Under the pieces are notes generated by a model that saw only the letters and a list, made by a program, of their open reading frames with translations, had not been told where the DNA came from and did not search any database. Shown in pieces: positions 4,396 to 47,923 of a stretch of DNA of 64,000 bases. The DNA comes from an uncultured Actinomycetes bacterium (GTDB taxonomy: Bacteria; Actinomycetota; Thermoleophilia; UBA2241), in the NCBI GenBank assembly GCA_963767005.1, contig CAVYCN010000002.1:14272-78271 (forward strand). The letters run 5' to 3'. The stretch's first letter is position 1; every line of letters starts with the position of its first letter. The position numbers and the translations under genes are program-made.

Positions 4396-5021
4396 GGCCG
4401 CTCCTCGAGTCGGGCTGCCGTGACGGCCCGGCGCAGCGCGGCCCGGCCCTTGAAGAGCCGCGAACCGATCGTGCCGGGGGGGACGCCGATGATCTGGGCG
4501 GCGAGGCGGTAGTCGAGACCCTCCTGGTCGACGAGCACGACTGCGACGCGCTGCTCCGGTGTGAGGCCGGCGAGCAGCCTCTCGACGACGTCGCGCGAGG
4601 CGAGCTCGTCGGCGGGATCGGGAGATGTGGCGACGGTCTCCGGGAGGTCATCGGACGCCACGATCACGAGGTCTCGCCGGCGGCGCAGCAGGTCGACGCA
4701 AGTGTGGTAGGTCGTGCGAGCCAGCCAGGCTCCGAGGGCATCGGGTGCGCGCAGCGTGGGCAGCGCGCGAGCCGCCTTGATCGCGACCTCCTGCAGGGCG
4801 TCGTCCATGAGGTCGCGGTCGCCGAGCAGCGACGAGGCGATCCGCCGCAGGCGGCGGTCGTGACGGCGCAGGATGGTGAGGAAGGCGTCGACGTCGCCGC
4901 GGCGTGCCGCGGCCAGGGTGCGAGGGTCGATCCGCACGCCGCGCCGCAGGTCTTCGGGGTCGTCGGCGTGCACCGCGCCTTCCTCGGCAGGGACATTCGC
5001 AAGCTCGACCCCATCGTGCAC
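4392..5021 (-). CDS. ECF (sigma-70 family, sigma-24-like) RNA polymerase sigma factor
   Basis: region 2 (DALQEVAIKAARAL...) and region 4 HTH (LTPEQRVAVVLVDQEGLDYRLAAQIIGVPPGTIGSRL) motifs. Confidence 0.8.
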   Translation of the reverse strand: MHDGVELANVPAEEGAVHADDPEDLRRGVRIDPRTLAAARRGDVDAFLTILRRHDRRLRRIASSLLGDRDLMDDALQEVAIKAARALPTLRAPDALGAWLARTTYHTCVDLLRRRRDLVIVASDDLPETVATSPDPADELASRDVVERLLAGLTPEQRVAVVLVDQEGLDYRLAAQIIGVPPGTIGSRLFKGRAALRRAVTAARLEERP

Positions 5022-5196
5022 GGCACCCCCCGTATCGTGGTCGTCGGCCGGTCGGCCTCAGGCGGTGCCGGCCTCAGCGGTGCGCATCACAGGAGAAGAC
5101 GCAGGCGGCCCGCCGGTTTCTTCACGCAGGCGCGGCGCGGCCACGGCCGGGAGGGGCAGACGAGCGGACGAGGAGCCGTGGTGCACGACCCTGCGC

Positions 5197-6120: not shown

Positions 6121-6345
6121 GGCATCACCCTACCTGCCGTCGACAGCGTACGGGCTGAAGTTCTGGATGAGGGGGGCGTCCCCTGCGCAGTGACGGCGCG
6201 GCCGCGTAGCCCTCTCGCCGCCGGGCCGCGACGAGCGCACCGTCGCCTCGATGCCGGGCCATGACGACGCCGTCTCTGGGGCGCCGCCGCTTGCGAATGG
6301 TATCGTTGGCAGATCGTCACGATCCGAGGGGGAGGTCGCACGGGC

Positions 6346-7638: not shown

Positions 7639-7735
7639 GCGCGCTCGCCCGCGTGGCGCCCGTGCGGGCCGCGCGGGGCTCGGGCTCAGGCAGGGAGTCG
7701 CGGCACGGCGTCAATCGCCCGCGCGGCCGGTATGA

Positions 7736-7764
7736 CGAACGTCACGGCCGATCGATGACGTTCG
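7736..7764 (+). promoter_or_regulatory. perfect 9-bp inverted repeat CGAACGTCA-N11-TGACGTTCG upstream of the ABC transporter operon (candidate operator)
   Basis: seen directly in sequence, about 200 nt upstream of the ATPase start. Confidence 0.3.
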
Positions 7765-7968
7765 GCACTGCCGGCCGCGCCTGGCCGCCGCTACACTGGT
7801 CGGCGAGGCGGATACCACCGCGGTGACAGCCAAGATGCCTCCGCGGGGTGACGACCGTGCGCGGCGTCGCCGGGTATCGTCCTTACTGATCGCACGACAA
7901 TCACCGGGATGCGCCCGCCTTGGGGAGGCGGTGACGCGGCGACCCGGTCATCGAGGGAGGCCAAATCC

Positions 7969-8795
<827 letters not shown>

Positions 8796-8799
<4 letters not shown>

Positions 8800-29273: not shown

Positions 29274-30587
29274 TCAGCCGCCGAGCTCGACGACCGTGTC
29301 GATGCCGTCGGCCACGGCCAGCACGCGGGCCCCGGGGCCGCGCACGCGGCGCGCCGCCGCGACGGCCTCGTCGATCGACTCAAAAGCGAGCAGGCCGCAG
29401 CCCTCGACGAGGTCGGGATCGCGCGCGCCGACAACGCCGACCCGGTACGTCGTCATGAGCTTGGCGACCATGTAGGCGCGCTGGCCGCCGGGGCCGAGCG
29501 GCTCGACGCAGCCGCGGGCGACCAGGTCCATCGGCCGCCTGGTCTCGGCCAGGAGCGCGCCGAAGTTGACCTCGCCGGGGCCGTCGCCGACGCCGAGCGG
29601 CAGCTCGGCGCAGAACGCGATCAGGCCGCCCGGCACGAGCACCGGCCGGGCCGACAGGCCGACATAGGTGGCGGCTCGCGAGGCCTGGTAGAGGCTGCGG
29701 TCCTTGGGCTCCGGCACGCCGGCGACCACCAGGTCGAACGGCGCGTCGTGGCGCCTCACCCAGGTGTCCCCGTGGTCGGCAACGAGGCGGCGCTGGGCGG
29801 CGGCGGGGTCGCCGGCGGCCACGCCGGCGACCCCGCCGCCGCCGTCCACGACGACGTTCAGCGCGAAGCGCAGGGCGGTGGCGGCGGCGATCTCGCGCAG
29901 CGCCTCCTGGAACGGGTTGCCGTCGAGCCGGCAGAGACGCACCTCGGGGCGGTCGAGGAACACGGGGTGGTGGGTCCAGGCGATCGTCTCGCGGCCGGCG
30001 CAGCCGACCGCCACCGCCTTCACGCCGCCTGAGAAGCCGGCGTAGAGGTGGGGCTCGACGATGCCGACCGCCACCACGAGGTCGGCGCCCGCGACCGCCT
30101 CTTCGATCACGATGGGGCCGCGGCCGGCGACCTCGCCCAGCGGCACGTTGCGCGGGCTCATGCCCTGGGCGTCGACCACACGCAGGCGCCGGGCGACGCC
30201 GGCGCCGACGAGGGTCTCGCGCTCGGCCGGGGTCGTCGTGCGGTGCAGCCCGCAGCCGATCACGACGCGGATGCGCTCGTCGCTCACCCCGGCCTGCGAG
30301 AGGCGCTCCAGCAGGGGCGGCAGGAGGGCCGCCACGGGGCAGCCACGGCTCGAGTCGGGCACCACGACGGCGACCTCGCGGGCGCCGGCGGCGAGGGCGG
30401 CGAGGGGTGGCGCCTGGATGGGCGCGTCGAGCGCCGCGGCCACCGCCGCCGGCAGGTCGCCGACCGCGGTCAGGAGCGCCGGTGGGTCGAAGGCGCAGGC
30501 CGCCGTCGCCGGCAGGCAGCGCCGGCCGGCCACCACCCAGGGGGCGCCGGCGAGGCCGTCCGCGCCGGGCGGCGGTGCGACGCTCAT
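29274..30587 (-). CDS. LarA-family (lactate racemase / DUF2088-type, nickel-pincer-nucleotide-dependent 2-hydroxyacid racemase-like) protein
   Basis: 438 aa; ...VEPHLYAGFSGGVKAVAVGC... matches the LarA HxxAGFSGGxK cofactor-tethering region as I recall it; ATGA overlap with the upstream mini-ORF. Confidence 0.65.
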   Translation of the reverse strand: MSVAPPPGADGLAGAPWVVAGRRCLPATAACAFDPPALLTAVGDLPAAVAAALDAPIQAPPLAALAAGAREVAVVVPDSSRGCPVAALLPPLLERLSQAGVSDERIRVVIGCGLHRTTTPAERETLVGAGVARRLRVVDAQGMSPRNVPLGEVAGRGPIVIEEAVAGADLVVAVGIVEPHLYAGFSGGVKAVAVGCAGRETIAWTHHPVFLDRPEVRLCRLDGNPFQEALREIAAATALRFALNVVVDGGGGVAGVAAGDPAAAQRRLVADHGDTWVRRHDAPFDLVVAGVPEPKDRSLYQASRAATYVGLSARPVLVPGGLIAFCAELPLGVGDGPGEVNFGALLAETRRPMDLVARGCVEPLGPGGQRAYMVAKLMTTYRVGVVGARDPDLVEGCGLLAFESIDEAVAAARRVRGPGARVLAVADGIDTVVELGG

Positions 30588-30799
30588 GGCTCCGCCCGGC
30601 GCTGGGGCGGGCAGACCCAGAAGGCGACGAGCGCGGCGATCGCGCCCAGGGGCGGGAAGATCACGGCCAGCAGGAAGCCCCAGACGACCCAGGCCAGACG
30701 CGAGCGGCCGGTGCGCCGGGCGGTGCGCTGGCCGACGTAGAGGCAGACCGGGAGCTGGGCGGCGAACAGGAGCTGGGTGGCCATGGTCGAGAGGTGCAT
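30584..30799 (-). CDS. PLDc_N-like small membrane protein (71 aa)
   Basis: ...RLAWVVWGFLLAVIFPPLGAIAALVAFWV... fits the PLDc_N consensus (KxxWLlxIlxxPxlGxixY); start 3 nt after the regulator stop, stop overlaps the LarA-like start. Confidence 0.45.
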   Translation of the reverse strand: MHLSTMATQLLFAAQLPVCLYVGQRTARRTGRSRLAWVVWGFLLAVIFPPLGAIAALVAFWVCPPQRRAEP

Positions 30800-30801
30800 G
30801 G

Positions 30802-33045
30802 CTACGTGTATCGCCGCAGCAGCCGGGCGACGAGGTCGCGCAGCGCGGCGACCGCCGGTTCGGGGGCGAGCGGCACGGCCGCGCCGGCGAAGTGCAGGAG
30901 CTCGTGGGTGAGCCAGCGCTCGTCGACGTAGGGTTGGGTCGCCAGGCAGGCGCCGCCCGGAACGGGTACCGCGGGCCCGCGCTCGGCCACGTAGCGTGCG
31001 ACGTCGGGCGCGTACCAGACGAGCGCGCTGCGCGGCGCGTGGCGGGCTGCGCTGCGCACGCCCTCGCGGCGGTAGAGCTCGACCTCGACCTCGGGGCGCG
31101 GCGCGAAGCGCTCGCCGCGCAGCGCCGCCCGCTTGGTGGTGGCGATCCGGAAGGTGCGCGTGCCTTGCGAGCGCCGGCACCAGGCGACGTAGTACCACTC
31201 GCCCCGGGTGCGCACCAGCAGGTACGGCTCAACCGTCCGCGTCGTGGTCGTGCCGCTGCCCTCCGACCAGTACTCGATGTCGAGCAGACGGTGCTCGCCG
31301 ACGGCCGCGCTCACCGCGTCGAGGATCGGCTCGGCGGTGGGCAGCCGCTCGCCGGCGGCGACCGACGACGGCGCCGCGTGACGGGCGCGGCGCAGCTTCT
31401 GCGCCGCGCTGCGCAGCGCGGCGCCGTGCTCGATCGGGAGCTGCCCGCCGAGCACCTCGACGGCCAGCAGCAGCGTGTCGACCTGTAGCGGCGACAGGCG
31501 GGCCGGCCGCGCGAACGCCGAGCTCGCCACGTCGCAGGTGACGACCAGGTCCGGCCCCTTGACCTCGGCCCACACGAGGGTGCCCTCGCCGCCGAAGTTG
31601 ACGAGGTTGAGGAGCCGCACGTCGGCGCGCAGCTCGGCCGGCGTGGTGTCGAGCCGGGCGCAGAGCTCGGCGACGGGCACGGGCGTCTCGTCGGCGCCGC
31701 CGGCCGCCCGGCAGACGTCGTGCAAATAGGTGAGCAGCGTGGTCAGGCGGGTGAAGCGGTCGGCTTCGACCTGCCAGTCGTCGGCGCCGCCGGCCGGTGC
31801 CGAGTCGGCGCGGGGAGTGGGCGAGCTGGCGGGCTCGTCGAGCCCGGCGGCGGCGAGCAGCGCGGCGGCGCGGCCGGCCTCGAGCGGCGGCCGCTCGAGC
31901 CGCCCGGCCAGGCGGCCGAGCTGGGCGCGCAGCTCGGCGCGCAGCGCCGGCGGCTCGACGAGCTCGGCCGCCGCCCCCATCGAGAGCACCCACTCGATGA
32001 GCTGCTGAGCCGAGTCGTAGGCGGTCGAGAACAGGATGTCGGTCTCGTCGCCGGCGCCGCCCGTGCCCGCATCACCGCCGTCGCCGCCCGCCCCGGAGCC
32101 GTCACTGCCGCCCGTGCCGGCGTCGCGGCCACCCTCGCCGGCGTTCAGGCGCGCGTCGTCGCCGGCCGGCGCGATCGTGCCGCAGCGCGCGAAGTGGGCC
32201 TCGACCCACCAGGCCATGCCGGCCGCCACGCGCACGACGGCGTGGCCGACCGGCTCGCCGAGCTGCCAGGGCGGGCGGTCGAGGTAGCGGTCGATCGAGA
32301 AGTCGAGCGGCGCGCCGAAGTCGTGCGGCGCGCGCGTCGCGAAGGTCACGCGCGAGCGCAGGCGCGACAACCGGAAGGTGCGGATCGCCGTGCGCAAGTG
32401 GCAGAAGCCGACGAGGTACCACTCGTCGCCGACGAGCAGCAGGCCGTACGGGTCGACCGTGCGCTCGCGCTCCTCGTCGCGGCCGATCGAGTAGTAGAGG
32501 AAGGTCACCGTCTTGCCGGCGGCGACTGCCTGTTGCAGCTTGGGCAGGGCGCCGGCGGCGCGGCGCGCCTCGCGCTCGGGTAGCACGCTGATCGGTGTGG
32601 GGGCGGCCGGCGCGAGCAGCTCGGGCCGGCCGTGGGTCAGGCTGAGCAGGGCGAGGCGCAGCGGCTCGCTGTAGGCGAAGCGGTCCTCGAGCACGAACAG
32701 GCAGGCGGCGAGCGCCGAGAGCTCGGCCGGTGTGAGCTCGATGGCCGGCAGGTAGTAGGCCGACGCCGGCAGCGAGTAGAGCTCGGCCTCGCCACCCTCG
32801 CCGCCATCGGCGGCGATCGCGATGCCCAGGGCGGTGAGCTCGGCGCGGTCCTCGTAGAAGCGCCGCTTGAAGGCGTCGTCGCTCATGAGCGCATAGCCTT
32901 CGACGCGACGACGGATCTCGGCCGCGGTGGCGGGCCGCCCCGGGCGCGAGAGCAGGAAGGCGACGAGCGACAGCCGCCGGATCAGCTTGTCGGCGTCCTT
33001 CGAGAAGCCCTCCTCGCGGGGCGCGCCGCCCTGTCCGGGGCTCAC
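30802..33045 (-). CDS. pafBC: fused PafB/PafC-like transcriptional regulator (two HTH-WYL modules in one 747-aa polypeptide)
   Basis: module 1 HTH (DKLIRRLSLVAFLLSRPGRPATAAEIRRRVEGY) plus WYL (WYLVGFCHLRTAIRTFRLSRL); Gly/Asp-rich linker; module 2 (RFTRLTTLLTYLHDV...GGEGTLVWAEV) plus WYL (WYYVAWCRRSQGTRTFRIATT); GTG start overlaps the GNAT stop (GTGA). Confidence 0.7.
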   Translation of the reverse strand: MSPGQGGAPREEGFSKDADKLIRRLSLVAFLLSRPGRPATAAEIRRRVEGYALMSDDAFKRRFYEDRAELTALGIAIAADGGEGGEAELYSLPASAYYLPAIELTPAELSALAACLFVLEDRFAYSEPLRLALLSLTHGRPELLAPAAPTPISVLPEREARRAAGALPKLQQAVAAGKTVTFLYYSIGRDEERERTVDPYGLLLVGDEWYLVGFCHLRTAIRTFRLSRLRSRVTFATRAPHDFGAPLDFSIDRYLDRPPWQLGEPVGHAVVRVAAGMAWWVEAHFARCGTIAPAGDDARLNAGEGGRDAGTGGSDGSGAGGDGGDAGTGGAGDETDILFSTAYDSAQQLIEWVLSMGAAAELVEPPALRAELRAQLGRLAGRLERPPLEAGRAAALLAAAGLDEPASSPTPRADSAPAGGADDWQVEADRFTRLTTLLTYLHDVCRAAGGADETPVPVAELCARLDTTPAELRADVRLLNLVNFGGEGTLVWAEVKGPDLVVTCDVASSAFARPARLSPLQVDTLLLAVEVLGGQLPIEHGAALRSAAQKLRRARHAAPSSVAAGERLPTAEPILDAVSAAVGEHRLLDIEYWSEGSGTTTTRTVEPYLLVRTRGEWYYVAWCRRSQGTRTFRIATTKRAALRGERFAPRPEVEVELYRREGVRSAARHAPRSALVWYAPDVARYVAERGPAVPVPGGACLATQPYVDERWLTHELLHFAGAAVPLAPEPAVAALRDLVARLLRRYT

Positions 33046-33572: not shown

Positions 33573-35030
33573 CTAGACGGCCTGGCGCTCGGCCGCGGCG
33601 ATGATCGCGTCGAACTCGCGGCCGAGGTCGTCGGGAAAGCCGATCGGCTCGGCCGCCAGGATCTCGCGCACCTTGTCCTGCGCCTTTTCGACCGTGCTCT
33701 TGCCGCCGGCCGCCTTCCAGGCCTCGTAGTTGCCCGTCTCGCCGAGCTTGGCCTGCCAGAGCTCGCGCACGTGCTTGCGGGTGTGCCCGTCGAACAGGTA
33801 GTTGCCGTTGAAGCCCATCTTGACGATAAGGTCGCGGGCGATCGTCTCGTCGGTCACCTCGACGCCGCGCAGCATGCGCTTGACCATGCCGAGGATCTCG
33901 TCGTCGACCACCATGTTCTCGAGGCACAGGATGCGCGAGCCGTCGAGCAGGCCGGTGCCGAACGTCACGTCGGCGCCGTTGGCGTAGGCCATGAACATGG
34001 CGAGCGCGTTCTCGTAGGCGCTCTGGATACCGGGCTCCTTGGCCGTGGTCGCACCGGCGCCGTACCAGGCCGGCACGCCGTAGAAGTCGGCCATGTGGCC
34101 CTGCACGGCGCGGATCAGGATGGCTTCGGGCGAGTTGCTCGCGTAGGCCCCGCTCCCCATGTACATCGCGGTCGGGCCGCCGCCGTGGATGACCGGCGCG
34201 CCCGGGCTGGCGAGCTGTACGAGCGTCGCGCCGCTCACGAACTCGGCGTTGTTCACGACGGCCGATCCAGCGATCGTGATGGGGCCGGTCGCGCCGAGGA
34301 TCGGCATGGGGTAGAAGCTGATCGGGATACCGGCGTCGGCGAGGGTGAGGGCGAGGTCCATGCCGAAGCGCTCCTGGTGGAGCGGGCTCACCGTGCAGAT
34401 GATGGCGGTGAAGGTCGGCCGCAGGCGCAGCTCGTCGCGGCCGCCGGCGAGGGCGACGCCCATCTCGATCAGGCTGCGCGCCTCCCAGTCCTCCTTGATA
34501 GAGACGACGATGCTGTGCTTGGCCGAGTTGCGCACGCAGGCGTCGAACTCGTGCAGCACGCGGCTCTGGATGGGGCAGTCCTGGGCCGAGACGACCGCGC
34601 TCGTCGCACTCACATTGTCGAGCGCCTGGACGACGCGGGCGCAGTTCTCGAGGTCTTCCTTGCGCGAGGGCCGTACCACGCCGGTGACCGGGTCGCGGTA
34701 GGACACGCCGCAGCCGTCGGACGAGATGTAGATGTGCTCGCCGTCGAGCGGCAGGTCGTACTCGGGCGTGCGGCCGCCCAGGGTGAACTCGTGCGGCACG
34801 CTGGCGAGCGCCCGCTCGACGACCGCGCCCGGGATCTTCGCGACCGAGGTCTCCCGGTCGACCGTGGCGCCGTGCTCCTCGAGCACGTCGAGCGCCCGCT
34901 GCGAGAAGAACATGACGCCGACGTTCTCGATCACGTCGAGCGTCGCCTCGTGGATCTGACGGATCTCGGCGGCGTCGAGGAGATCGAGCTTGACGCGCTT
35001 GCCGACATAGCAGCCGTCTGCGTAGGTCAT
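33573..35030 (-). CDS. MttB-superfamily methyltransferase (trimethylamine methyltransferase family, non-pyrrolysine type)
   Basis: 485 aa; collinear similarity to MttB/MtgB as I remember it (e.g. PTFTAIICTVSPLHQERFGMDLAL..., ...MGFNGNYLFDGHTRKHV...); no in-frame amber. Confidence 0.8.
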   Translation of the reverse strand: MTYADGCYVGKRVKLDLLDAAEIRQIHEATLDVIENVGVMFFSQRALDVLEEHGATVDRETSVAKIPGAVVERALASVPHEFTLGGRTPEYDLPLDGEHIYISSDGCGVSYRDPVTGVVRPSRKEDLENCARVVQALDNVSATSAVVSAQDCPIQSRVLHEFDACVRNSAKHSIVVSIKEDWEARSLIEMGVALAGGRDELRLRPTFTAIICTVSPLHQERFGMDLALTLADAGIPISFYPMPILGATGPITIAGSAVVNNAEFVSGATLVQLASPGAPVIHGGGPTAMYMGSGAYASNSPEAILIRAVQGHMADFYGVPAWYGAGATTAKEPGIQSAYENALAMFMAYANGADVTFGTGLLDGSRILCLENMVVDDEILGMVKRMLRGVEVTDETIARDLIVKMGFNGNYLFDGHTRKHVRELWQAKLGETGNYEAWKAAGGKSTVEKAQDKVREILAAEPIGFPDDLGREFDAIIAAAERQAV

Positions 35031-35271
35031 GGTGGTCGGTCCTTTCGGCGTGAAGGGGTGCGCGACGGGAGCGCTCGCGGCCGCCAGGCCCGGGCTCCCG
35101 CGCGTCCGACGGGACGGATGGTCCTACGCGGCGGGGTGGTCGCGCGCCGCCGACTTGAGGCGAGTCCGCGTCAAGAGCGCTCCTTCAGCTGGTGCCGGCC
35201 GCCCCGCTCCCTTCGCGGGGAGCGCCAGAAAGGTGTCGCCGACTGCCCAGAGTCTACATCGCCGCGAGCCG

Positions 35272-36717
35272 TCACTGGGCCGCCGCGGCGATGATCGCGT
35301 CGAACTCGCGGCCGAGGCCGGCGGGAAACTCGGGCACCGGTGCGGCGAGCAGCTCCTCGACCCGGGCGTGGGCCACGTCGGCCGTGCCGCGCGCGCCGGC
35401 CGTCTTCCAGGCCTCGTAGGTGCCGGTCTCGCCCAGCCTGGCCTGCCAGAGCTCGCGCACGTGCTTGCGGGTGTGGGAATCGAACAGGTAGTCGCCCTTG
35501 AAGCCCATCCGGGCGATGAGGTCGACGGCCAGGTGCTCGCGGTCGACCGTCACGCCCTGCAGCAGGCGGCTCACCATGCCGAAGACCTCGTCGGCCACGA
35601 CGAGTTCCTCGAGCGACATCTGCGTGACCGAGTCGAGCAGGCCGGCCCCGAACAGAAAATCGGCGCCGGCGAACAGCTCGAGCATGAGCCCGAGTGTGTT
35701 CTCGTAGGCCGCCTGCACGCCGGGCTCCTTGCCCTTCGTGCCGCCCCAGCCCAGGCCGGCGGGCATGCCGTAGAAGGCCGCCATCTGGCCCTGCACGGCG
35801 CGCAGCAGGAGCGCCTCGGGCACGTTGGCGAAGTAGGCTCCGGTGCGCATGAACAGGGCGGTCGGTCCGCCGGCGTGGATGAGCTTGGCGCCGGGGTGCG
35901 CGAGCTGGATCGCGGTGATGGCGCCCAGGATCTCGGCGTTGTTGACGACCGCGGTGCCGGCCGGCGTCACCGGCGCCGTCGCGCCCAGGATCGGCATGGG
36001 GTAGAGCATCATCGGGATGCCGGCCTCGGCGAGGGTGAAGGCGAGGTCCATGCCGAAGCGCTCCTGGTGCAGCGGGCTTACCGTGCACAGGATGACCGAG
36101 AAGGTGGGGCGCTCGTCGAGCTCGCGGGCGCCGCCGGCGACCGCCTCGGCCATGCGGATCAGGCTGCGCGCCTCCCAGTCCTCTTTGAGTGAGACGACGA
36201 TGGTGTGCTTGGCCGACGAGCGCATGCAGGCGTCGAACTCGTGCAGCACGCGCGTCTCGACCGGGCTGTCCTGGGCCGACACGAGGGCCGACGTGGCTGA
36301 GATGTTGTCGAGCCCCTGCACCACGCGGGCCGCCGCCGCGACGTCGGCCTTGGTCGAGGGCCGCACCGAGCCGTCGTGCTCGCGCACGAACGTGGCGCAG
36401 CCGTCGGAGGTGATGTAGGCGTGCTCGCCGTCGAGCGGCAGGTCGTACTCGGGGGTGCGGCCGCCGAGCGTGAAGCGCCGCGGCAGGGTGGCCAGGGCCC
36501 GCTCGACCACCTCGGGCGGCAGCTTGGCGACCGTGGTCTCGTAGTCGACCTCGGCGCCGGCCTCGGCCAGCACGTCGAGGGCGCGCTTCGAGTAGTAGAC
36601 GCAGCCGACCTCGTGCAGGATGTCGAGCGAGGTCTCGTGGATGCGGCGCACCTCGTCTGGCGAGACGATCTGGAGCGGCCGGCGCGAGCCGACGCGGCGG
36701 GTATCGGCGTGGGTCAC
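35272..36717 (-). CDS. MttB-superfamily methyltransferase, tandem paralog (about 70% identity to the upstream copy)
   Basis: 481 aa; AAGGAGA RBS plus GTG start; same conserved blocks as the first copy. Confidence 0.8.
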   Translation of the reverse strand: MTHADTRRVGSRRPLQIVSPDEVRRIHETSLDILHEVGCVYYSKRALDVLAEAGAEVDYETTVAKLPPEVVERALATLPRRFTLGGRTPEYDLPLDGEHAYITSDGCATFVREHDGSVRPSTKADVAAAARVVQGLDNISATSALVSAQDSPVETRVLHEFDACMRSSAKHTIVVSLKEDWEARSLIRMAEAVAGGARELDERPTFSVILCTVSPLHQERFGMDLAFTLAEAGIPMMLYPMPILGATAPVTPAGTAVVNNAEILGAITAIQLAHPGAKLIHAGGPTALFMRTGAYFANVPEALLLRAVQGQMAAFYGMPAGLGWGGTKGKEPGVQAAYENTLGLMLELFAGADFLFGAGLLDSVTQMSLEELVVADEVFGMVSRLLQGVTVDREHLAVDLIARMGFKGDYLFDSHTRKHVRELWQARLGETGTYEAWKTAGARGTADVAHARVEELLAAPVPEFPAGLGREFDAIIAAAAQ

Positions 36718-37829
36718 GGGTTCTCCTTGCGGTCGGGACGGACGACGGCGCCGGCGCTTGCCGGCGTACGGGTGACGAAGCGGCGGGAGACGAACGGCGA
36801 GGTCACGGCGCGCACGAGGGCGTCGTAGTCGACGGCGAAGGCAACGGTGTCGCCCGGGCGCAGCTCGCGCGGCGTGACGAGCACGGCCACGTCGCTCGTC
36901 ATGCCGGCGACCCAGGCCCCGTCGAGCAGCGGCCGCAGGCCACCGGGCTCGCAGTCGCGCCGGCCGAGGGCGATCAGCGTGTACCAGGCGTCGTGGTCGG
37001 GCAGCGCCGTGTCGGGGGTGTGGCCGAACGCGTCGCGGCCGGCGGGGCCGACCGGCGCCGGCGGCTTGCGCGACGACTCGAGCACGGTCGCGGTGAGCAC
37101 GGGGTCGAAGCGTTCGAGGCCGGCGAGCGTCTCGCCCGAGACGAAATCGTAGCCGTAGAGGAGCCCGCCGCCGGCGCGCAGCTCGGTGCGAAACCGCGGC
37201 GTGAAGTCGTCGAGGCAGCTGAGGCAGACGGTCCCGCCGACGGACAGCAGCGGAGCGTCGAGGTCGGCGGCGTCGGCGACCGTGGCCAGGACGTCCTCGG
37301 CCGCGCGCAGCAGCGCGACGCTGGGGAGCTGGCCCGACAGGCAGGCGAAGTTCACGGCGATGCCGCCGAGGGCGGTGCCGGGCAGGCCGGCGAGGCGGCT
37401 CGCCGCCTCGCCGGCCTGCCCGGGCAGCACGCCCTCGCGGCGATCGCCGAGGTCGACGGTGAGCAGCAGCTCGATCGGCAGGCCTGGCGCGTGGCGGCCG
37501 AGCTCCTCGGCCGTGCCCGGGTCGCACAGCAGGATTCGTTCGGCGACCTGGGCCGCCGTCACGACGTCGTGGGGTCCGGGGGCGCGCAGCAGCGTGAGCG
37601 GCACGAGGGCGTGAGCGGCGAGCCGCACCAGCGCGGGCAGGCGCGAGTCGGCGAGGCCGGTGCAGCCGGCCTCGAGCATCGCCTGCCCGACGGCCGGCTC
37701 GCCGTCGACGGCCTTGGTCACGCCGACGAGCTCGATGCCGCGGGCGAGCAGGCGCGCGGCGAGGCTGCCCGTAGCGGCCGCGATGGCGTCGAGGTCGAAG
37801 GTCAGCTCAGGTTCCGTGGCGGTCCTGCG
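36714..37829 (-). CDS. alanine-racemase-fold (fold-type III PLP, YhfX-like) protein; start codon unresolved
   Basis: LTFDLDAIAAATG...ELVGVTKAVDG (candidate PLP lysine) N-terminal barrel; stop overlaps the MttB paralog start; no ATG/GTG/TTG near the expected N-terminus (the nearest GTG at 37928 would add a poly-Arg leader). Confidence 0.5.
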   Translation of the reverse strand, partial: RRTATEPELTFDLDAIAAATGSLAARLLARGIELVGVTKAVDGEPAVGQAMLEAGCTGLADSRLPALVRLAAHALVPLTLLRAPGPHDVVTAAQVAERILLCDPGTAEELGRHAPGLPIELLLTVDLGDRREGVLPGQAGEAASRLAGLPGTALGGIAVNFACLSGQLPSVALLRAAEDVLATVADAADLDAPLLSVGGTVCLSCLDDFTPRFRTELRAGGGLLYGYDFVSGETLAGLERFDPVLTATVLESSRKPPAPVGPAGRDAFGHTPDTALPDHDAWYTLIALGRRDCEPGGLRPLLDGAWVAGMTSDVAVLVTPRELRPGDTVAFAVDYDALVRAVTSPFVSRRFVTRTPASAGAVVRPDRKENP

Positions 37830-37928
37830 GTCGCGGAAACGCCGGCGGCGGCGCCGCCGGCGGGGACAGTATAATCGGACGGCGACGACGCCCCCAAATC
37901 GGGCCCAACGGTCTCGGCCGGACGGCAC

Positions 37929-39437
37929 GTGCGGCACGACACGACGAGGCAGGTGACGAGCGAGATGACCCAGCCCGACGGCGACAGCTCCGCACGAGGT
38001 GCTCACCTCGCGCTCGACGGCGACCTCACCGAGCGGGACGGCCACCTCGTGCTCGACGGGGTCGACCTCGTCGAGCTCGCTCGCACCAACCCGACGCCGT
38101 TCTTCGTGTACTCGCCGCGGCGCATCCGCTGGAACGTGAGCAGCCTCGTGAACGCCTTCACCCGGCGTCACCTCGACACCGAGGTGTTCTTCGCCAGCAA
38201 GGCCTGCTCGAACCTCTGGTTCCTGGGCGAGGTGCGGCGTGCCGGCGTGAACGTCGAGGTGAACTCGGGCGGCGAGCTCTGGAAGGCGCAGCGTGCCGGC
38301 TTTGCCGGCCGCCAGATCGTGTTCAACGGCGTCGCCAAGACCCGCGACGAGATCGCCGCCGCGTTGCGCGCCGGCGTGCGCGGCTTGACCGTCGACTCGC
38401 TGTTCGAGCTCGAACGCATCGCCGAGGTCGCCGCCGAGCTCGGCCTTGCGGCGCCGGTCGACCTGCGCATCGACGTCGACGTGCCGACGCTCACACACCC
38501 CGGCCTCGTGACGGCCCACGGGGGCAAGGCCGGCATCGACTGGGACGACGCGCTCGACGCCTTCGCCTACGCGGCCGGCCACCGGGGGCTCGAGCCGCGC
38601 GGCCTCCACCTGCACATCGGCTCGCAGATCACGGCGGTCGAGCCCTACCGCACGGCGGTCGAGAAGGCGCTCGACCTGATCGACGCGGTCGAGGCGAGCG
38701 GCGTGCGGCTCGAGCGGCTCAACACGGGCGGCGGTTTTGCCGTGCCGTACCGTGACCGGCCGGTCTGCGAGCCGGTCGACTACTTCTGCGCGCCGCTCAC
38801 GATCGACGACTACGCCGAGGCCGTCTGCGAGCCGGTGGAGCGTCGCCGGCCCGGCTTCAAGCTCCTGCTCGAGCCGGGCCGCTTCATCGCCGGCTCCACC
38901 GCGCTGCTCGTGACGACGGTCGAGAGCGCCAAGGTGAAGGGTCGCCGCGATGAGACCGGGCGGCGCGTCGGCGACGAGCGCTGGCTCACGATCGACGCCG
39001 GCTTCAACACGCTGCTCGAGCACACCAACTACCGCTGGTACTATCGCACGAGGGTGGCCAGCAGGGCGGGCGAGCCGGCCGACACGCCGTTCCGCCTGGC
39101 CGGGCCGCTGTGCGACGGTGGCGACGTGTTCGCCGGCGACGACGACACGCCGTACCGGCTCCTACCGGCCGCCACCGCGCCGGGCGACGTCGTCGTCTTC
39201 TTCGACGCGGGCGCCTACACCCTCGAGATGATGAACCCCTACAACGCCCGTCCGCAGGCGGCGGCGTTCGCCGTCGAGCGCGGGGCGGCGCGTCTCATCC
39301 GCCGGGCGGACAGCCTCGAGGACCTCGTCGCCCACGACGTGCCGCTCCGGCGCTCGGGCGCGGTCCGCGGCAAGCCGGGCGCGGCGCGTGGCAAGCGGGG
39401 TGCGAAGGCCTCGCCCCAGGTCGCCGACCCGGCCTGA
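37929..39437 (+). CDS. Orn/DAP/Arg decarboxylase family 2 (LysA/ODC-like fold-type III PLP decarboxylase) with Lys/Arg-rich C-terminal tail
   Basis: FASKAC (PLP lysine), HIGSQI, GGGF, CDGGD motifs; alternative ATG at 37966; TATAAT at 37869-37874 upstream. Confidence 0.75.
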   Translation: MRHDTTRQVTSEMTQPDGDSSARGAHLALDGDLTERDGHLVLDGVDLVELARTNPTPFFVYSPRRIRWNVSSLVNAFTRRHLDTEVFFASKACSNLWFLGEVRRAGVNVEVNSGGELWKAQRAGFAGRQIVFNGVAKTRDEIAAALRAGVRGLTVDSLFELERIAEVAAELGLAAPVDLRIDVDVPTLTHPGLVTAHGGKAGIDWDDALDAFAYAAGHRGLEPRGLHLHIGSQITAVEPYRTAVEKALDLIDAVEASGVRLERLNTGGGFAVPYRDRPVCEPVDYFCAPLTIDDYAEAVCEPVERRRPGFKLLLEPGRFIAGSTALLVTTVESAKVKGRRDETGRRVGDERWLTIDAGFNTLLEHTNYRWYYRTRVASRAGEPADTPFRLAGPLCDGGDVFAGDDDTPYRLLPAATAPGDVVVFFDAGAYTLEMMNPYNARPQAAAFAVERGAARLIRRADSLEDLVAHDVPLRRSGAVRGKPGAARGKRGAKASPQVADPA

Positions 39438-42695: not shown

Positions 42696-43184
42696 GTGAC
42701 CGGCGAGCCCCCCGACCTGCCCGATCTGCTCGGCGACCACCCGTCGCTCGGCCTCGTGCTGCGCCGCGACCTGGTGCGTGGCCTGCGCGCCGGCCTGGCG
42801 ACCTTCTGGAGCCTGGCCAAGGCGATGATCCCGGCCTACGCCCTGGCGCTCGTCCTCGAGAAGCTCGGCGCGGTGCGCGCGATCGCCCACGTCGCCCAGC
42901 CGGTGATGTCGCTGGTCGGCCTGCCGGGCTCGGCGGCCGTGCCGCTCGTGCTGGGCTGGGTGCTCAACGTCTATGCCGCCGTCGGCGCCATGACGGCGCT
43001 CCACCTGGACGCGCGCCAGATCACGGTGCTCGCCCTGGCCGTGCTGATCGGCCACAACCTGCTGGTCGAGGGCGCCGTGCTGCGCCGCGCCGGCATGAGC
43101 GGCGTCGGCTTCGGCGTCCTGCGCGCGGTCAGCGGCCTCGCCGCCGCCGGCCTCGCCAACCTGCTCATGAAGGCGCTGTCGTGA
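42696..43184 (+). CDS. nucleoside-recognition (Gate) domain membrane protein, SpmA-like
   Basis: 162 aa, 4 TM; paired with the following gene via ATGA overlap. Confidence 0.55.
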   Translation: MTGEPPDLPDLLGDHPSLGLVLRRDLVRGLRAGLATFWSLAKAMIPAYALALVLEKLGAVRAIAHVAQPVMSLVGLPGSAAVPLVLGWVLNVYAAVGAMTALHLDARQITVLALAVLIGHNLLVEGAVLRRAGMSGVGFGVLRAVSGLAAAGLANLLMKALS

Positions 43185-43672
43185 GTGCGCTGCTGTCGGA
43201 GTTCCTGCGCGGCTCGTTCAGCCTGCTGTGGCGCGTCTTCGTCATCGTCGTGCCGATCATGGTCGTGCTCGAGCTCTTCGAGGGCTCGCGGCCCTTCCGC
43301 GTGGTCGTGCGACTCTGGGCGCGCGTCATGGCGCCGCTCGGCATGACCGACGAGATCGCCACCCCGACGCTGGTCGGCTTTCTGTTCGGCATCGCCTACG
43401 GCGGCGGCGTCATCATCCGCGAGACCGCCCGTCACAGCCTGCCGCGCCGGCAACTGTTCCTCATGAGCGTCTTCCTGAGCGAGGTGCACGCCATCTTCGA
43501 GGACTCGCTCGTGCTCATCGCCGTCGGCGCGTCGGCCGTGTGGGTGGTCGGCTTTCGCCTGGTCTGGGCCGCCGCGCTGACCGCGCTCCTGGGCGCGGGC
43601 GCGGCCGCCGTCGCGCGCCGCCGCGGCGGCGCGCGGCCGGACCGGCGCGAAGGCGAGCCGGGGAGCGAATGA
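43181..43672 (+). CDS. nucleoside-recognition (Gate) domain membrane protein, SpmB-like
   Basis: 163 aa, 4 TM. Confidence 0.55.
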   Translation: MSALLSEFLRGSFSLLWRVFVIVVPIMVVLELFEGSRPFRVVVRLWARVMAPLGMTDEIATPTLVGFLFGIAYGGGVIIRETARHSLPRRQLFLMSVFLSEVHAIFEDSLVLIAVGASAVWVVGFRLVWAAALTALLGAGAAAVARRRGGARPDRREGEPGSE

Positions 43673-43699
43673 AGCGCTTGCGACAGGGGTATTGTTGAC

Positions 43700-43730
43700 A
43701 AGTCTTATCGGTTTCCGCTACCAATCAGAT
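43700..43730 (+). promoter_or_regulatory. sigma70-like promoter TTGACA-N18-TACCAA in an AT-richer island upstream of the Rrf2 gene
   Basis: perfect -35 hexamer; likely also carries the Rrf2 autoregulatory site. Confidence 0.35.
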
Positions 43731-43792
43731 GACTGCGCGCACCGGGTCCGCCCGGGACCGCTGCCGCGGCAGGCGACGACGAGCGAGCGACG

Positions 43793-44236
43793 ATGAACAT
43801 CTCCGCCAAGAGCAAGTACGCGGTGCGCGCGCTGGTCGAGCTGGCCGAGCGTACGCAGGGCCAGCCCGGCCAGCTCGTCCGGCTCACCGACGTGGCCAAG
43901 GCGCGCAGCATCCCGCTGCAGTTCCTCGAGCAGCTCTTCGCCGGGCTGCGCCGGGCCGGCATCGTCAAGAGCCGGCGCGGCGCGAGCGGCGGCTTCGTGT
44001 TCGCGCGTCCGCCCGGCCAGGTCACGGTGCTCGACGTGGTCGAGACCCTCGACGGGCTCGTCTCGCCGGCGATCTGTACGCAGGGCGAGTGCGAGCGCAT
44101 CGAGGAGTGTGGCGCGGCGGCGGTGTGGCTCGAGGCCAAGGAGGCGCTCGAGCAGGTGCTGCGTCAGACGACGATCGCCGACCTCGCCGAGCGCGAGCTC
44201 GCCCGCGCCCCCCACGAAGCCATGTACTACATCTGA
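43793..44236 (+). CDS. Rrf2 family transcriptional regulator (IscR/CymR-like)
   Basis: N-terminal w[21 protein letters not shown]..., GxxGGF motif, 3 Cys ([12 protein letters not shown]). Confidence 0.8.
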
Positions 44237-44255
44237 CAGCCAGCCGGAGGACCGT

Positions 44256-45209
44256 GTGAAGATCGCAGACGACATCACCCAGTTGATCGGCGCTACGCCG
44301 CTCGTGCACCTGCGCGCCCTCTCGGAGCGCAGCGGCGCCACCATCGTCGGCAAGCTCGAGTCGTTCAACCCGGGTGGCAGCGTCAAGGACCGCATCGGCC
44401 TGTCGATGATCGAGGCGGCCGAGCGCGCCGGCATGATCGCGCCGGGTCGCACGACGATCGTCGAGCCGACCAGCGGCAACGCCGGCATCGCCCTGGCCAT
44501 GGTCACCGCCGCGCGCGGGTATCGCCTGATCATCACCATGCCGGAGACCTTCAGCGTCGAACGTCGTACGCTGCTACGCGCGTACGGTGCCAAGCTCGTG
44601 CTCACGCCCGGTCCCGAGGGCATGCGCGGCGCGATCGAGCGCGCCGCCGAGGTCGTCGCCGAGACGCCCGACAGCTTCATGCCGCAGCAGTTCGAGAACC
44701 CGGCCAACCCCGCGATCCACCACGACGCGACCGGCGACGAGATCTGGCGCGACACCGAGGGCGCCGTCGACGTCTTCGTGGCCGGCATCGGCACCGGCGG
44801 CACCATCACCGGCGTGGGTCGGCTCCTCAAGGAGCGCAAGCCCGCGGTCAGGGTCGTAGGGGTCGAACCCATCGAGTCGACCGTCCTGGCCGGAGGGCAG
44901 CCGGGGCCGCACCGCATCCAGGGTATCGGCGCCGGCTTCGTGCCCGCCGTGCTCGACACCGCGGTCTACGACGAGGTGCTCGCCGTGACCGGCGAGCAGG
45001 CGTTCGAGACGGCGCGCGCCCTGGCGGCCGGCGAGGGCCTCCTCGTCGGCATCTCTGCCGGCGCGAACGCGTTCGTCGCCGCCGAGGTCGGTGCCCGACC
45101 GGAGAACGCGGGCAAGCTCATCGTCACCATCCTGTGCGACACCGGCGAGCGCTACCTGTCGACCACCCTGTTCGCCGAGCAGAGCGCCTCGGCGATGATC
45201 GGCGGCTGA
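44256..45209 (+). CDS. cysK: cysteine synthase A (O-acetylserine sulfhydrylase)
   Basis: PLP-binding lysine motif [28 protein letters not shown]; GGAGG RBS plus GTG. Confidence 0.85.
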
Positions 45210-46084
45210 TGGCCGACGCCGTGCACGAAGGCGCCGTGGGCGCCTCGCTGATCGCCGCCGTCGGCGCGCTGCTCGAGCCGCTCGAGCGGGCGCTGCGGCC
45301 GCTCGAGCACGTCTGCGTCGCCTTCTCCGGCGGCGTCGACTCGAGCGTCGTGCTGGCGGTCGCCGTGCGCGTGCTCGGAGCGTCGCGGGTGCTCGCCTTT
45401 ACGGCCGTGTCCGAGACCTACCGCGACGACGAGCTCGTGGCGGCCCGCGCCCTCGCGGACTCGCTCGGCGTGCGTCACCTCACCTGGCAGACCCGCGAGC
45501 TCGACGACCCGCGCTTCGTGGCCAACACGCGCGATCGCTGCTACGCGTGCAAGGCGACGCTGCTCGAGGCCATGGAGCGGGCGGCGGCCGAGGCCGGTGC
45601 GACCGCCCTGGTCGACGGCGCCAACCGCGACGACCTGGGCGACGAGCGCCCCGGCATGCGGGCCGCCGCCGAGCGCGGCGTACGGCACCCGCTGATCGAG
45701 GCCGGGCTCGGCAAGGCGGCCGTGCGCACCCTCGCCCGTGCCCTCGACCTGCCGGTCTGGAGCAAGCCCGCCGAAGCCTGTCTGGCCTCGCGCGTCGCGT
45801 ATGGCGAGGCCGTCACGGCCGACAAGCTGCGTCAGGTGGCGGCGGCCGAGGACGTGCTGCGCGAGCTCGGTCTGGGCCCTGAGCTGCGCGTCCGTCACCA
45901 CGGCGACGTCGCCCGTGTCGAGGTGCCGGCCGAGCAGGTCGAGCGCGCCGCCGGCGCCGAGGTGCGGACGGCCGTCGACCGCCGCCTGCGGGCGCTCGGC
46001 TTCACGTACGTCGCCCTCGACCTGCAGGGCTTTCGCTCGGGCAGCATGAACGAAGCCCCACGACCCGAAAGGAGCGCCCCGTGA
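45208..46084 (+). CDS. LarE-type PP-loop ATP pyrophosphatase (TIGR00268 family sulfur transferase)
   Basis: PP-loop AFSGGVDSS; CxxC (DRCYACKA) plus downstream EACLASRV Cys aligned with the LarE active-site loop; ATGA overlap with cysK stop and GTGA overlap with cysE start. Confidence 0.7.
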
Positions 46085-46884
46085 ACCGCCCGCTCGCCAC
46101 GATGGCCGATGCCGCCGAGGGCGCGTGGTGCGCCGTGCGGGGCGGCCGGCTGCGGCACTTCGTGGCGCGCATGCGCCGCGACGTGCAGGCCGTCAAGGAG
46201 CGCGATCCGGCGGCCACCAGTTCGTTCGAGATCGTCACCTCGTACTCGGGTCTGCACGCCCTCTGGCTGCACCGCGTCGCCCATCCTCTGTACCGCTGCG
46301 GTGTGCCGATCGTGCCGCGCTGGCTCTCGCAGTTCAACCGGTTCCTGACCGGCATCGAGATCCACCCCGGGGCGCAGGTCGGCGAGGGCTTCTTCATCGA
46401 CCACGGCTCGGGTGTCGTGATCGGCGAGACCACCGAGATCGGCGACAACGTCACCCTCTACCAGGGCGTCACCCTCGGCGGCACAGGCAAGGAGCACGGC
46501 AAGCGCCACCCCACGCTCGGCGACAACATCGTGGTGGGCTCGGGAGCGAGCGTGCTCGGCTCGATCAGGATCGGCGACAACGCCAAGATCGGCTCGGGCA
46601 GCGTGGTCGTGCACGACGTGCCGGCCAACGCCACCGTGGTCGGCAACCCGGGTCACCCGGTGGTGGTCGACGGTCAGCGCGTCGGCATCCCCGACATCGA
46701 CTACACCCACCTGCCCGACCCGGTGGCCGAGGCGCTCAAGTGCGTCGTCGATCGCATCATCGCCCTCGAGCAGGAGCTCGACGAGATCGACCCGGCGCGC
46801 AAGGATCGCCGCCGCTCGCGCATTGCCGTCAACCAGGCGACCCTCGACCGCCTGCTGCACTTCAGCGACGGGGCCGGGATCTAG
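46081..46884 (+). CDS. cysE: serine O-acetyltransferase
   Basis: left-handed beta-helix hexapeptide repeats, DHGSGVVIGETTEIGDNV... Confidence 0.85.
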   Translation: MNRPLATMADAAEGAWCAVRGGRLRHFVARMRRDVQAVKERDPAATSSFEIVTSYSGLHALWLHRVAHPLYRCGVPIVPRWLSQFNRFLTGIEIHPGAQVGEGFFIDHGSGVVIGETTEIGDNVTLYQGVTLGGTGKEHGKRHPTLGDNIVVGSGASVLGSIRIGDNAKIGSGSVVVHDVPANATVVGNPGHPVVVDGQRVGIPDIDYTHLPDPVAEALKCVVDRIIALEQELDEIDPARKDRRRSRIAVNQATLDRLLHFSDGAGI

Positions 46885-46971: not shown

Positions 46972-47280
46972 GTGAGCCACGTCCGACGTCTTGTCCTCGA
47001 CGTCCTCAAACCCCACATGCCGACCATGCTCAACCTGGCCGACAAGCTCGGCGACCTCGAAGGCATCGCCGGCGTCGACATCACGCTCTTCGAGATCGAC
47101 AACAAGGTCGAGAACATCAAGATTACCCTCGAGGGCAGCGACATCGACTACCAGGAGGTCGCCGAGGTCATCCAGGATTCCGGCGGCAGCATCCACTCCA
47201 TCGACAAGGTGTCCACCGGCCGCCAGCTCATCGACGAGGCCGAGACACCTCAGGACGCCGGCGCCCGCTGGATGCGGTGA
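46972..47280 (+). CDS. DUF211 family protein
   Basis: VRRLVLDVLKPH...GVDITLFEID...IKITLEG.DIDY...GGSIHSIDKV. Confidence 0.6.
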   Translation: MSHVRRLVLDVLKPHMPTMLNLADKLGDLEGIAGVDITLFEIDNKVENIKITLEGSDIDYQEVAEVIQDSGGSIHSIDKVSTGRQLIDEAETPQDAGARWMR

Positions 47281-47302: not shown

Positions 47303-47923
47303 GTGAGCCCCATGACGGCCTCCGGTCCGGCGGGCTGGCTGCGCCGCACGGTCGCCACCCTGCGCCACTACCACCACCTCGCCGAGGTGGGCGAGATCGC
47401 CCGCCGCTACTTCGCCATGAACGCCTTCGACGGCGTGCTCACGACGCTCGGCGTGCTGGTCGGCAGCTCCATCGCCCACGTGCGCTCGGCCCACCAGGTC
47501 ATCGCCGTCGGGCTGGGCGCAGCCGTGGCGATGGGCGTCTCGGGCTTCTACGGCTCGTACCTGATCGAGCGCGCCGAGCGCGACCGCTCGTTGCGCGAGC
47601 TCGAGGACGTCACCCTCTCGAGCCTAGAGGACTCCGATATCGCGGCGGCCTCGACCTATGCCACCATCGTCATCGCTCTGGTCGACGGCGTGTCGCCCTT
47701 CCTCGCCGCGCTGCTCGTGCTGCTGCCGTTCCTCGGCGGCTTCATGGGCATCCACGCCGCCTACGTGACCGGCGTCGCGATCGCCTTCGTCGAGCTCTTC
47801 CTGCTCGGGCTGTTCCTGGGCCGCGTGTCGCGCCAGCGTCTCGTGTGGTCGGGCGTCAAGCTCGCCGTGGCCGGCGTGCTGTGCATCGCCCTGAGCGCCC
47901 TGCTCGACTACGGCCTGCGGTGA
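47303..47923 (+). CDS. VIT1/CCC1 family (putative Fe/Mn) transporter
   Basis: ...MNAFDGVLTTLGVLVGS... and 4-5 TM helices. Confidence 0.7.
   Translation: MSPMTASGPAGWLRRTVATLRHYHHLAEVGEIARRYFAMNAFDGVLTTLGVLVGSSIAHVRSAHQVIAVGLGAAVAMGVSGFYGSYLIERAERDRSLRELEDVTLSSLEDSDIAAASTYATIVIALVDGVSPFLAALLVLLPFLGGFMGIHAAYVTGVAIAFVELFLLGLFLGRVSRQRLVWSGVKLAVAGVLCIALSALLDYGLR

Follow-up and report, generated by a model that had tools for sequence, protein, structure and literature searches.

Here we describe a four-gene operon in a 64,000-nucleotide stretch of DNA from an uncultured Actinomycetes bacterium (contig CAVYCN010000002.1, positions 14,272 to 78,271; 73% G+C; part of the 223-kb metagenome contig ENA ERZ25039473 contig_23411; hereafter the window), in which a gene for a LarE-type PP-loop sulfur transferase is embedded between the cysteine-synthesis genes cysK and cysE, behind a gene for an Rrf2-family regulator. 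The close relatives of the window carry Thermoleophilia or Actinomycetes labels as metagenome-assembled genomes (MAGs). [quoted passage not shown] Its conserved placement among genes of sulfur metabolism hints at where its sulfur comes from.

Residues 23-281 of the 291-residue protein match positions 4-259 of the 259-position LarE model TIGR00268 with 319.9 bits (cut-off 150), whereas the other NCBIfam PP-loop models (among them NadE, QueC and MnmA) score at most 36 bits, far under their cut-offs, which bears out the preliminary description of this DNA in its choice of LarE over another PP-loop clade. The best match among solved structures is L. plantarum LarE (5udq; E 1e-52, residues 24-283, 184 bits, 38-40% identity), followed by 8cnz (E 5e-18, 69 bits). 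The latter, together with 8cp3 and 8cp4, is deposited as 'NAD_synthase domain-containing protein', and we take these entries to be the [4Fe-4S] LarE of Methanococcus maripaludis. In a Foldseek search of the PDB, the AlphaFold model of the window protein (pLDDT 86.1, pTM 0.82) found LarE chains in 50 of 50 among the matches listed, with E-values down to 4e-24 and TM-scores of 0.68-0.89 when normalised by query or target (0.75-0.89 when normalised by target). The PP-loop SGGVDSS, as first read from the sequence, lies at residues 40-46 (codons at 45326-45346, + strand) and aligns with SGGIDS of L. plantarum LarE; S40, G42, D44 and S45 are 100% conserved in the 71 LarE homologs with classified contexts, a conservation that is partly due to selection, since the pattern used to search for loci contained the PP-loop motif. 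Furthermore, the P2CMN phosphate-binding residues S180, R212 and R214 of the L. plantarum enzyme correspond in the alignment to S194, R227 and R229, and the two proteins have the C-terminal motif GFRSGxMN in common. We also note that C36 (codon 45314-45316), four residues N-terminal of the PP-loop (HVCVAFSGG), is invariant in 14 close relatives and falls under the conservation threshold among wider LarE homologs.

The class of the enzyme is indicated by three further cysteines. C111 and C114, which form a CXXC motif (C111-Y-A-C114 in DRCYACK; codons at 45539-45550, + strand), align with CYNC of 8cnz and face W97 and A100 of L. plantarum LarE, and C191 (in EACLASR; codon 45779-45781, + strand), the predicted third cluster ligand, aligns with the cysteine of DTCMATR, so that all three face cysteines in 8cnz (NRCYNCK and DTCMATR). 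The sacrificial Cys176 of L. plantarum LarE faces Ala190, and C191 stands one residue later. In T. maritima LarE, a [4Fe-4S] cluster is bound by C92, C95 and C172, turnover with IscS and cysteine is catalytic and probably proceeds via a [4Fe-5S] state, and the third cysteine of the CXXC-C triad is displaced by the same single residue from the L. plantarum Cys176 position (Chatterjee et al. 2022, PMC9283937); the comparison with this enzyme was made via its description in that paper and via 8cnz, not by direct alignment. The sacrificial class is characterised by a single cysteine at the Cys176 position and by the lack of CXXC. Since the window LarE has no sacrificial cysteine and carries the CXXC-C triad, it falls into the [4Fe-4S] class, as the preliminary description had proposed from this three-cysteine arrangement, and it is predicted from these residues to bind a cluster. 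The M. maripaludis LarE is likewise a [4Fe-4S] enzyme (PMC8961635), and most LarE homologs have CXXC-C (PMC9283937), so the triad is unremarkable in itself; what varies is where the gene lies.

The larE gene (45209-46084, ATG start) is the third of four tightly packed genes on the + strand, the order Rrf2-cysK-larE-cysE having been recognised correctly at the outset. The Rrf2 gene (43793-44236, 147 aa) is followed after a gap of 19 nt, which includes the ribosome-binding site, by cysK (44256-45209, 317 aa), with a GTG start after GGAGGA. The product is an O-acetylserine sulfhydrylase (cysteine synthase A) that matches PF00291 over its full length and clears the cysK cut-off (TIGR01139, 446.4 bits against 350.95), not that of cysM. 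cysK and larE overlap by 1 nt: the junction reads TGATG, with the stop TGA at 45207-45209 and the start ATG at 45209-45211 having one base in common, which corrects the start at 45208 and the ATGA overlap given earlier. The GTGA overlap proposed for the downstream junction holds, the larE stop (46082-46084) lying within a 4-nt overlap with the GTG start (46081-46083) of cysE (46081-46884, 267 aa), which encodes a serine O-acetyltransferase ending in -GI (TIGR01172, 237.1 bits, cut-off 210.65). Alternatively, cysE could begin at the in-frame ATG at 46102.

We then compared this arrangement with other LarE loci. One genome per GTDB species was scanned with an alignment of the window LarE and 13 homologs, and the best 80 LarE loci, from many phyla, were annotated using tblastn, clustering of open reading frames (ORFs) and spot checks with Pfam and NCBIfam; because the loci were picked by the motifs of the window LarE and the 80 most similar were retained, the frequencies below are biased and only indicative. 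Relatives at 81% and 75% identity retain the order Gate-Gate-Rrf2-cysK-larE-cysE-DUF211-VIT1-uvrD, and in relatives at about 64% identity a 261-aa MoeB/ThiF-type E1 gene is inserted between cysK and larE, so that across the Thermoleophilia the conserved order is Rrf2-cysK-(moeB/thiF)-larE-cysE. Among the Thermoleophilia-like loci, cysE lies directly 3' of larE in all 13 and cysK lies 5' of it in 9 of the 11 with enough flank to be evaluated, and larB or larC was found within 8 kb of larE in none of the 13; in L011 and L047 the Rrf2 gene abuts larE and cysK is missing. The synteny of cysK, larE and cysE thus extends more widely than the preliminary description had guessed. The ThiF/MoeB gene occurs in the relatives L007, L008, L012-L014, L018, L021 and L103, and its assignment to TcdA/CsdL was ruled out, the MoeB/ThiF/UbaA models scoring 266-370 bits against 55-62 bits for TcdA. 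In two Gaiellales-type loci (L024 and L084) the order is Rrf2-cysK-TusA-ThiS-like carrier-MoeB-JAB-larE-cysE, with a ThiS-like carrier that has GGG plus a short extension. No tblastn match to ThiF, the ThiS-like carrier, TusA or JAB was found in the window, which therefore lacks the combination of carrier, E1 and JAMM protease.

Several observations on the individual Thermoleophilia loci are recorded here. CysK ends in Gly-Gly in the window (45198-45209) and in L006, L009, L010, L012, L014 and L018, seven Thermoleophilia loci in all, with tails such as …AMIGG, …AMTGG, …EDGG, …ENGG and …HAGG; in L012, L014 and L018 the Gly-Gly CysK gene is directly followed by the MoeB/ThiF gene. Although this ending resembles the C-terminus of a sulfur carrier, it is not kept consistently: six further Thermoleophilia-like loci and every other phylum lack it. 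In L047 a single 439-aa ORF (7482-8801) holds both an Rrf2 domain (residues 3-131) and a LarE PP-loop domain, which is either a regulator-enzyme fusion or a stop codon lost in a long-read assembly. In two long-read metagenome contigs cysK is called truncated or split (L007, 6607-7185; L008, 6160-7102), and these breaks are probably assembly indel errors, not pseudogenes. The assembly ERZ25039519 contains two different larE loci.

The linkage of cysK to larE is also found in other phyla. Outside the Thermoleophilia, 7 of the 53 loci that could be evaluated have cysK upstream of larE, immediately adjacent in 4, and in none of the 7 does larB or larC lie nearby; larB and/or larC stand beside larE in 23 of 56 evaluable loci, and a cysteine desulfurase gene is adjacent to it in 7. 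The cysK-linked cases comprise Binatia loci with cysK immediately 5' of larE (L032 and L046), a gapless Rrf2-cysK-larE in Geobacter (L054), cysK-larE-sulfite reductase in a deltaproteobacterial MAG (L064), Rrf2-cysK-HcyBio-NIL/ferredoxin-MnmA-larE-ThiI-like in two further deltaproteobacterial MAGs (L048 and L062), and a Bacteroidota locus (L059) with cysK, Rrf2, larE and a cysteine desulfurase. In the cluster shared by L048 and L062 (about 3300-10500), HcyBio belongs to sulfide-dependent homocysteine synthesis, the ThiI-like PP-loop protein carries an NFACT-R_2 domain, and an FtrD-like protein is encoded as well. In the Chloroflexota locus L077, genes for MoeB, TusA, two DsrE/F-like proteins, a small ORF that has no Pfam match and JAB precede a cysK remnant and larE. 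The remnant, directly 5' of larE, is a 58-aa ORF (7771-7947) that joins the N-terminal 23 residues of CysK to its C-terminal ~35 and is a deletion remnant of an earlier cysK-larE pair.

The LarE proteins themselves do not reflect these differences of location. A column-by-column comparison of 20 cysK/cysE-linked with 25 larB/larC-linked LarEs showed that both groups share all strongly conserved positions, namely the PP-loop, C111, C114, K115, C191, S194, R195, R227, R229 and the C-terminal GFRSGSMNE. The triad C111, C114 and C191, like R195, R227 and R229, is 100% conserved in both groups and S194 is about 95% conserved. No group-specific residue was found at a functional position in this comparison, the differences being conservative, for example V/I at 172. 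In a neighbour-joining tree the cysK-linked LarEs are scattered in several places among the larB/larC-linked ones; the tree is crude and star-like and was used solely for the absence of one diverged clade. A diverged cysK-linked subfamily was rejected in view of the shared residues together with the lack of a single clade. Because the active-site positions are alike in both groups, we expect the window LarE to act as other iron-sulfur (Fe-S) LarEs do.

The regulator at the head of the operon matches PF02082 (117.6 bits) and TIGR00738 (123.7 bits) and clears the superfamily model only, scoring under the equivalog cut-offs of both CymR (NF047409, 98.8 against 195) and IscR (TIGR02010, 87.1 against 207.55). 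It has three clustered cysteines (C-x4-C-x5-C), which are kept in the cysK/larE-linked Rrf2 proteins of Thermoleophilia, Geobacter-type, deltaproteobacterial and Bacteroidota loci. Their conservation points to an Fe-S sensing Rrf2 rather than one of the CymR type, and the protein is better described as a putative Rrf2 of the Fe-S type. At 84 nt 5' of its start codon lies a conserved promoter/operator-like element, TTGACAAGTCTTATC (43695-43709, + strand). A block TTGACnnGnnTTATC is common to the upstream regions of 11 Thermoleophilia loci, and its version in L011 is a perfect palindrome with 11-bp arms, CTAAAGTTGAC-N7-GTCAACTTTAG. The pattern of the upstream element occurs once in the window, where 0.08 occurrences are expected, and a single match was also seen in 8 of 100 shuffles. 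A generic sigma-70 scan found no promoter at the element, and Rfam identified no riboswitch or known RNA in the leader at E-values up to 0.1. We infer that the element is an operator that overlaps the promoter and serves autoregulation by Rrf2.

Taken together, these data are consistent with the following mechanism. The larE gene would be translationally coupled between cysK and cysE, and the three-Cys Rrf2 at the operon head probably autoregulates the operon via the conserved element at 43695-43709. A [4Fe-4S] cluster held by C111, C114 and C191 would leave one iron free, and sulfide carried on this iron would displace AMP, two such rounds giving the bis-thiocarboxylate (P2TMN). As larE lies inside an operon with cysK and cysE, LarE would be produced together with the enzymes that make cysteine; a sulfur-consuming Fe-S enzyme may in this way be co-produced with the enzymes that make its ultimate sulfur donor. 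The sulfur could come from cysteine and reach the cluster through a desulfurase or a relay for which the genes lie elsewhere; it could also arrive directly in the form of sulfide. The suggestion of the preliminary description, that cysteine or persulfide is the sulfur source, draws on this gene context: the embedding of larE in a cys operon supports cysteine-derived sulfur as the donor, and so do the cysteine desulfurase genes adjacent to larE at 7 other loci. The substrate, the regulation and the sulfur route presented here are thus proposals from homology and gene order.

The likely user of the cofactor is a protein of the LarA family (NPN-dependent 2-hydroxyacid racemase/epimerase-like; 437 aa, Lar_N 148 bits), the gene for which, previously placed some 15 kb upstream, is found on the - strand at 29274-30587, 14.6 kb away. 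The equivalents of D72, R75, H108, H174, K184 and H200 of L. plantarum LarA (5huq) are all kept. In LarA, H108 and H174 are the catalytic histidines, K184 tethers the cofactor and H200 is a nickel ligand. In L018 and L103, the cys-larE cluster has a gene for a homolog of this protein about 6 kb away.

Several results weigh against the assignment of the window LarE to NPN synthesis. The main gap in the argument is that no LarB or LarC was found by Pfam or NCBIfam in the window plus 10 kb past each end (84 kb), a scan that used gene calls for 718-53367 and, for the remainder and the flanks, drew on Pfam hits already computed for L089 and L090. A tblastn search of the same 84 kb with 23 LarB and 19 LarC sequences likewise returned no match, so the earlier statement that neither gene is present in the window stands. 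Furthermore, no larB or larC was found near the LarA-like genes of relatives at 32 loci from a metagenome scan with the LarA-like protein, nor beside any cysK-linked larE. An Anaerolineae LarC, used as the query of a homolog search, brought up proteins of the Chloroflexota type only, a result that is uninformative for Thermoleophilia. The LarA-like protein scores under every NCBIfam LarA-homolog equivalog cut-off (best 245 against 500), and the bias of the locus set bears on all of the frequencies given above. The cluster binding, substrate and sulfur route of the window LarE are predicted from homology, and the gene context would also fit a general co-regulation of sulfur-incorporating enzymes, so it is no proof of a specific CysK-LarE partnership.

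In an alternative that we regard as unlikely, the protein belongs to the LarE family but has been recruited for the assimilation or relay of sulfur and not for synthesis of the nickel-pincer cofactor. It might, for example, thiocarboxylate another carboxylate, be it that of a ThiS-like carrier, of the C-terminal Gly-Gly of CysK or of a small molecule, or it might carry Fe-S bound sulfide for CysK. In favour of this reading are the failure to find larB or larC within 84 kb, the fact that the cysK-linked and the larB/larC-linked loci are disjoint, with larB/larC nearby in 0 of 13 Thermoleophilia-like and 23 of 56 other loci, and the fact that larE sits in sulfur-relay clusters in Gaiellales (TusA, ThiS-like carrier, MoeB and JAB) and in L077, beside HcyBio, MnmA and a ThiI-like protein in L048 and L062, and beside sulfite reductase in L064. 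The CysK proteins of several relatives do end in Gly-Gly, but roughly half of the CysKs from Thermoleophilia, and those of every other phylum, lack this tail. Moreover, recruitment sits poorly with the phosphate-binding and other conserved active-site positions being identical in cysK-linked and larB/larC-linked LarEs, with the lack of a single diverged clade of the former, and with the presence, in three genomes, of a nearby LarA homolog that has intact cofactor-binding residues.

A second alternative, which we judge decidedly improbable, takes the protein for an ordinary LarE that came to lie in the cys operon by an accident in the history of gene order, so that its place there would mean nothing for function or regulation. 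Since a 20-kb neighbourhood (Gate-Gate, Rrf2, cysK, larE, cysE, DUF211, VIT1 and uvrD) is syntenic class-wide, slow rearrangement could explain the conservation within the Thermoleophilia. However, cysK-larE recurs in Binatia, in Geobacter-type and other deltaproteobacterial MAGs and in Bacteroidota, with the cysK remnant in Chloroflexota as a further trace, and by a rough estimate, in which the chance of a given gene lying within 8 kb of another is about 1%, its occurrence in at least 4 independent lineages would have a probability no higher than about 1e-3. The overlap of start and stop codons and the persistence of the Rrf2-larE adjacency where cysK is missing (L011 and L047) also speak against accident. 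Recurrence in at least 4 separate lineages thus makes accident unlikely.

It is very improbable that the window LarE is a sacrificial, single-turnover enzyme like that of L. plantarum. That enzyme is its best-scoring solved relative, and the name of the matching NCBIfam model, 'ATP-dependent sacrificial sulfur transferase LarE', would suggest as much, but the name is misleading here, as it is for most family members: Ala190 occupies the Cys176 position, the CXXC-C triad is absent from the L. plantarum enzyme, and the triad-bearing T. maritima LarE retains every one of its cysteine sulfur atoms (PMC9283937). Membership of another PP-loop clade (NAD synthetase, QueC, TilS or the tRNA thiolases MnmA, TtuA and ThiI), at which the weak Pfam matches to Asn_synthase, NAD_synthase and QueC (41.8, 33.9 and 21.1 bits) might hint, is effectively refuted, as these matches span residues 25-99 only, whereas TIGR00268 matches over the full length and the structural matches listed are all LarE.

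The assignment of the window LarE to the [4Fe-4S] class, and its setting, can be placed beside known systems. With T. maritima LarE it shares the family, the PP-loop, the CXXC-C triad with its shifted third cysteine and the P2CMN phosphate-binding Ser/Arg/Arg, and its chemistry is expected to be the same, adenylation, after which a [4Fe-5S] state would hand on its non-core sulfide. In T. maritima, however, larE lies far from the genes for cysteine desulfurases (PMC9283937), whereas here larE lies within a cysteine-synthesis operon behind Rrf2. L. plantarum LarE, the closest solved relative, has the PP-loop, S180, R212, R214 and GFRSGxMN in common with it but gives up the sulfur of Cys176 and lacks CXXC, and its gene belongs to a larA-E operon, not a cys operon. 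8cnz aligns at all three cysteines, although its sequence relationship is much more distant than that of L. plantarum LarE (69 bits). The cysteine-synthesis setting also recalls M. tuberculosis CysO-CysM-Mec-MoeZ, a thiocarboxylate-dependent route of cysteine synthesis that has no LarE. The Gaiellales-type operon has the same parts, a CysK/CysM-type enzyme, a ThiS-like carrier with residues past Gly-Gly, an E1 and a JAB protease, whereas of that list the window operon has just cysK, together with cysE.

Another parallel is TtuA of the tRNA 2-thiouridine system of T. thermophilus, a PP-loop enzyme in which three cysteines hold a [4Fe-4S] cluster, the free iron of which takes up the transferred sulfur; the sulfur comes from the thiocarboxylate of a ubiquitin-like carrier that is made by a MoeB/ThiF-type E1 (PMC8584467). 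The Gaiellales relatives resemble the TtuA-TtuB-TtuC system in encoding TusA, a ThiS-like carrier, MoeB and JAB beside larE, and differ from it in that TtuA belongs to another PP-loop clade and acts on tRNA; in the window itself no carrier, E1 or JAB gene was found. By analogy, this suggests that some lineages may feed LarE via the thiocarboxylate of a carrier protein, as in TtuA-TtuB-TtuC (PMC8584467). A more far-reaching idea, which we put forward tentatively and think doubtful, is that the iron-sulfur LarEs of Thermoleophilia and several other phyla are fed by a dedicated, co-encoded sulfur route rather than by the housekeeping cysteine desulfurase. Such a route would be read as CysE and CysK in the window, as the MoeB-type E1 in sister lineages and as the relay of TusA, ThiS-like carrier, MoeB and JAB in Gaiellales, and LarE, like TtuA with TtuB, would receive its sulfur at the free cluster iron, either from the thiocarboxylate of a protein or from a species derived from CysK. 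In a stronger version, LarE may have a second role in sulfur assimilation that is independent of the nickel cofactor.

The surroundings of the operon contain further genes of possible relevance. Downstream of cysE on the + strand lie a DUF211 gene (46972-47280; PF02680, 118 bits) and a gene for a VIT1/TIGR00267-family membrane protein (47303-47923; PF01988, 41 bits; TIGR00267, 104 bits, under the cut-off of 156.95). No terminator-like site was found on the + strand between cysE and this pair, the only two such sites being on the opposite strand, so the transcription unit may reach these genes, which may be a pair for the transport of metal (Fe/Mn) that is transcribed along with the cys-larE genes. 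The order cysE-DUF211-VIT1-uvrD/pcrA is kept in all Thermoleophilia loci. Directly 5' of the Rrf2 gene, two overlapping genes (42696-43672) encode small 'Gate' (nucleoside-recognition/FeoB-gate-like) membrane proteins and are syntenic in most relatives. Further upstream, a block (33573-39437) that is syntenic with the cys-larE cluster in relatives begins with tandem MttB-superfamily methyltransferase genes on the - strand (33573-35030 and 35272-36717), which are followed by genes for Ala_racemase_N-like and Orn/DAP/Arg decarboxylase proteins and then for DegT aminotransferase and Amidase_6 proteins. The LarA-like gene is adjoined by a 71-aa ORF (30584-30799) that has no family matches and by a gene (30802-33045) for a 747-aa protein with two WYL domains, WCX domains and a PafC-type helix-turn-helix, which resembles a fused PafB-PafC regulator.

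Full-text literature searches found no description of a linkage between LarE and cysteine synthase, and one paper in which LarE, cysK and cysE occur names them only as neighbours of Thi4. The apparent novelty is the conserved embedding of larE in operons for cysteine synthesis and sulfur relay, under a three-Cys Rrf2, the enzyme itself being of an already known kind. On the physiological sulfur donor of the iron-sulfur LarEs, the sole biochemical evidence is E. coli IscS with cysteine in vitro (PMC9283937), and the occurrence of larE beside genes for cysteine synthesis, cysteine desulfurase or sulfur carriers across phyla offers donor candidates that can be tested. In addition, the three-Cys Rrf2 may link synthesis of the nickel cofactor to sulfur or Fe-S status. 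Finally, these findings extend the likely use of the nickel-pincer cofactor to uncultured soil Thermoleophilia.

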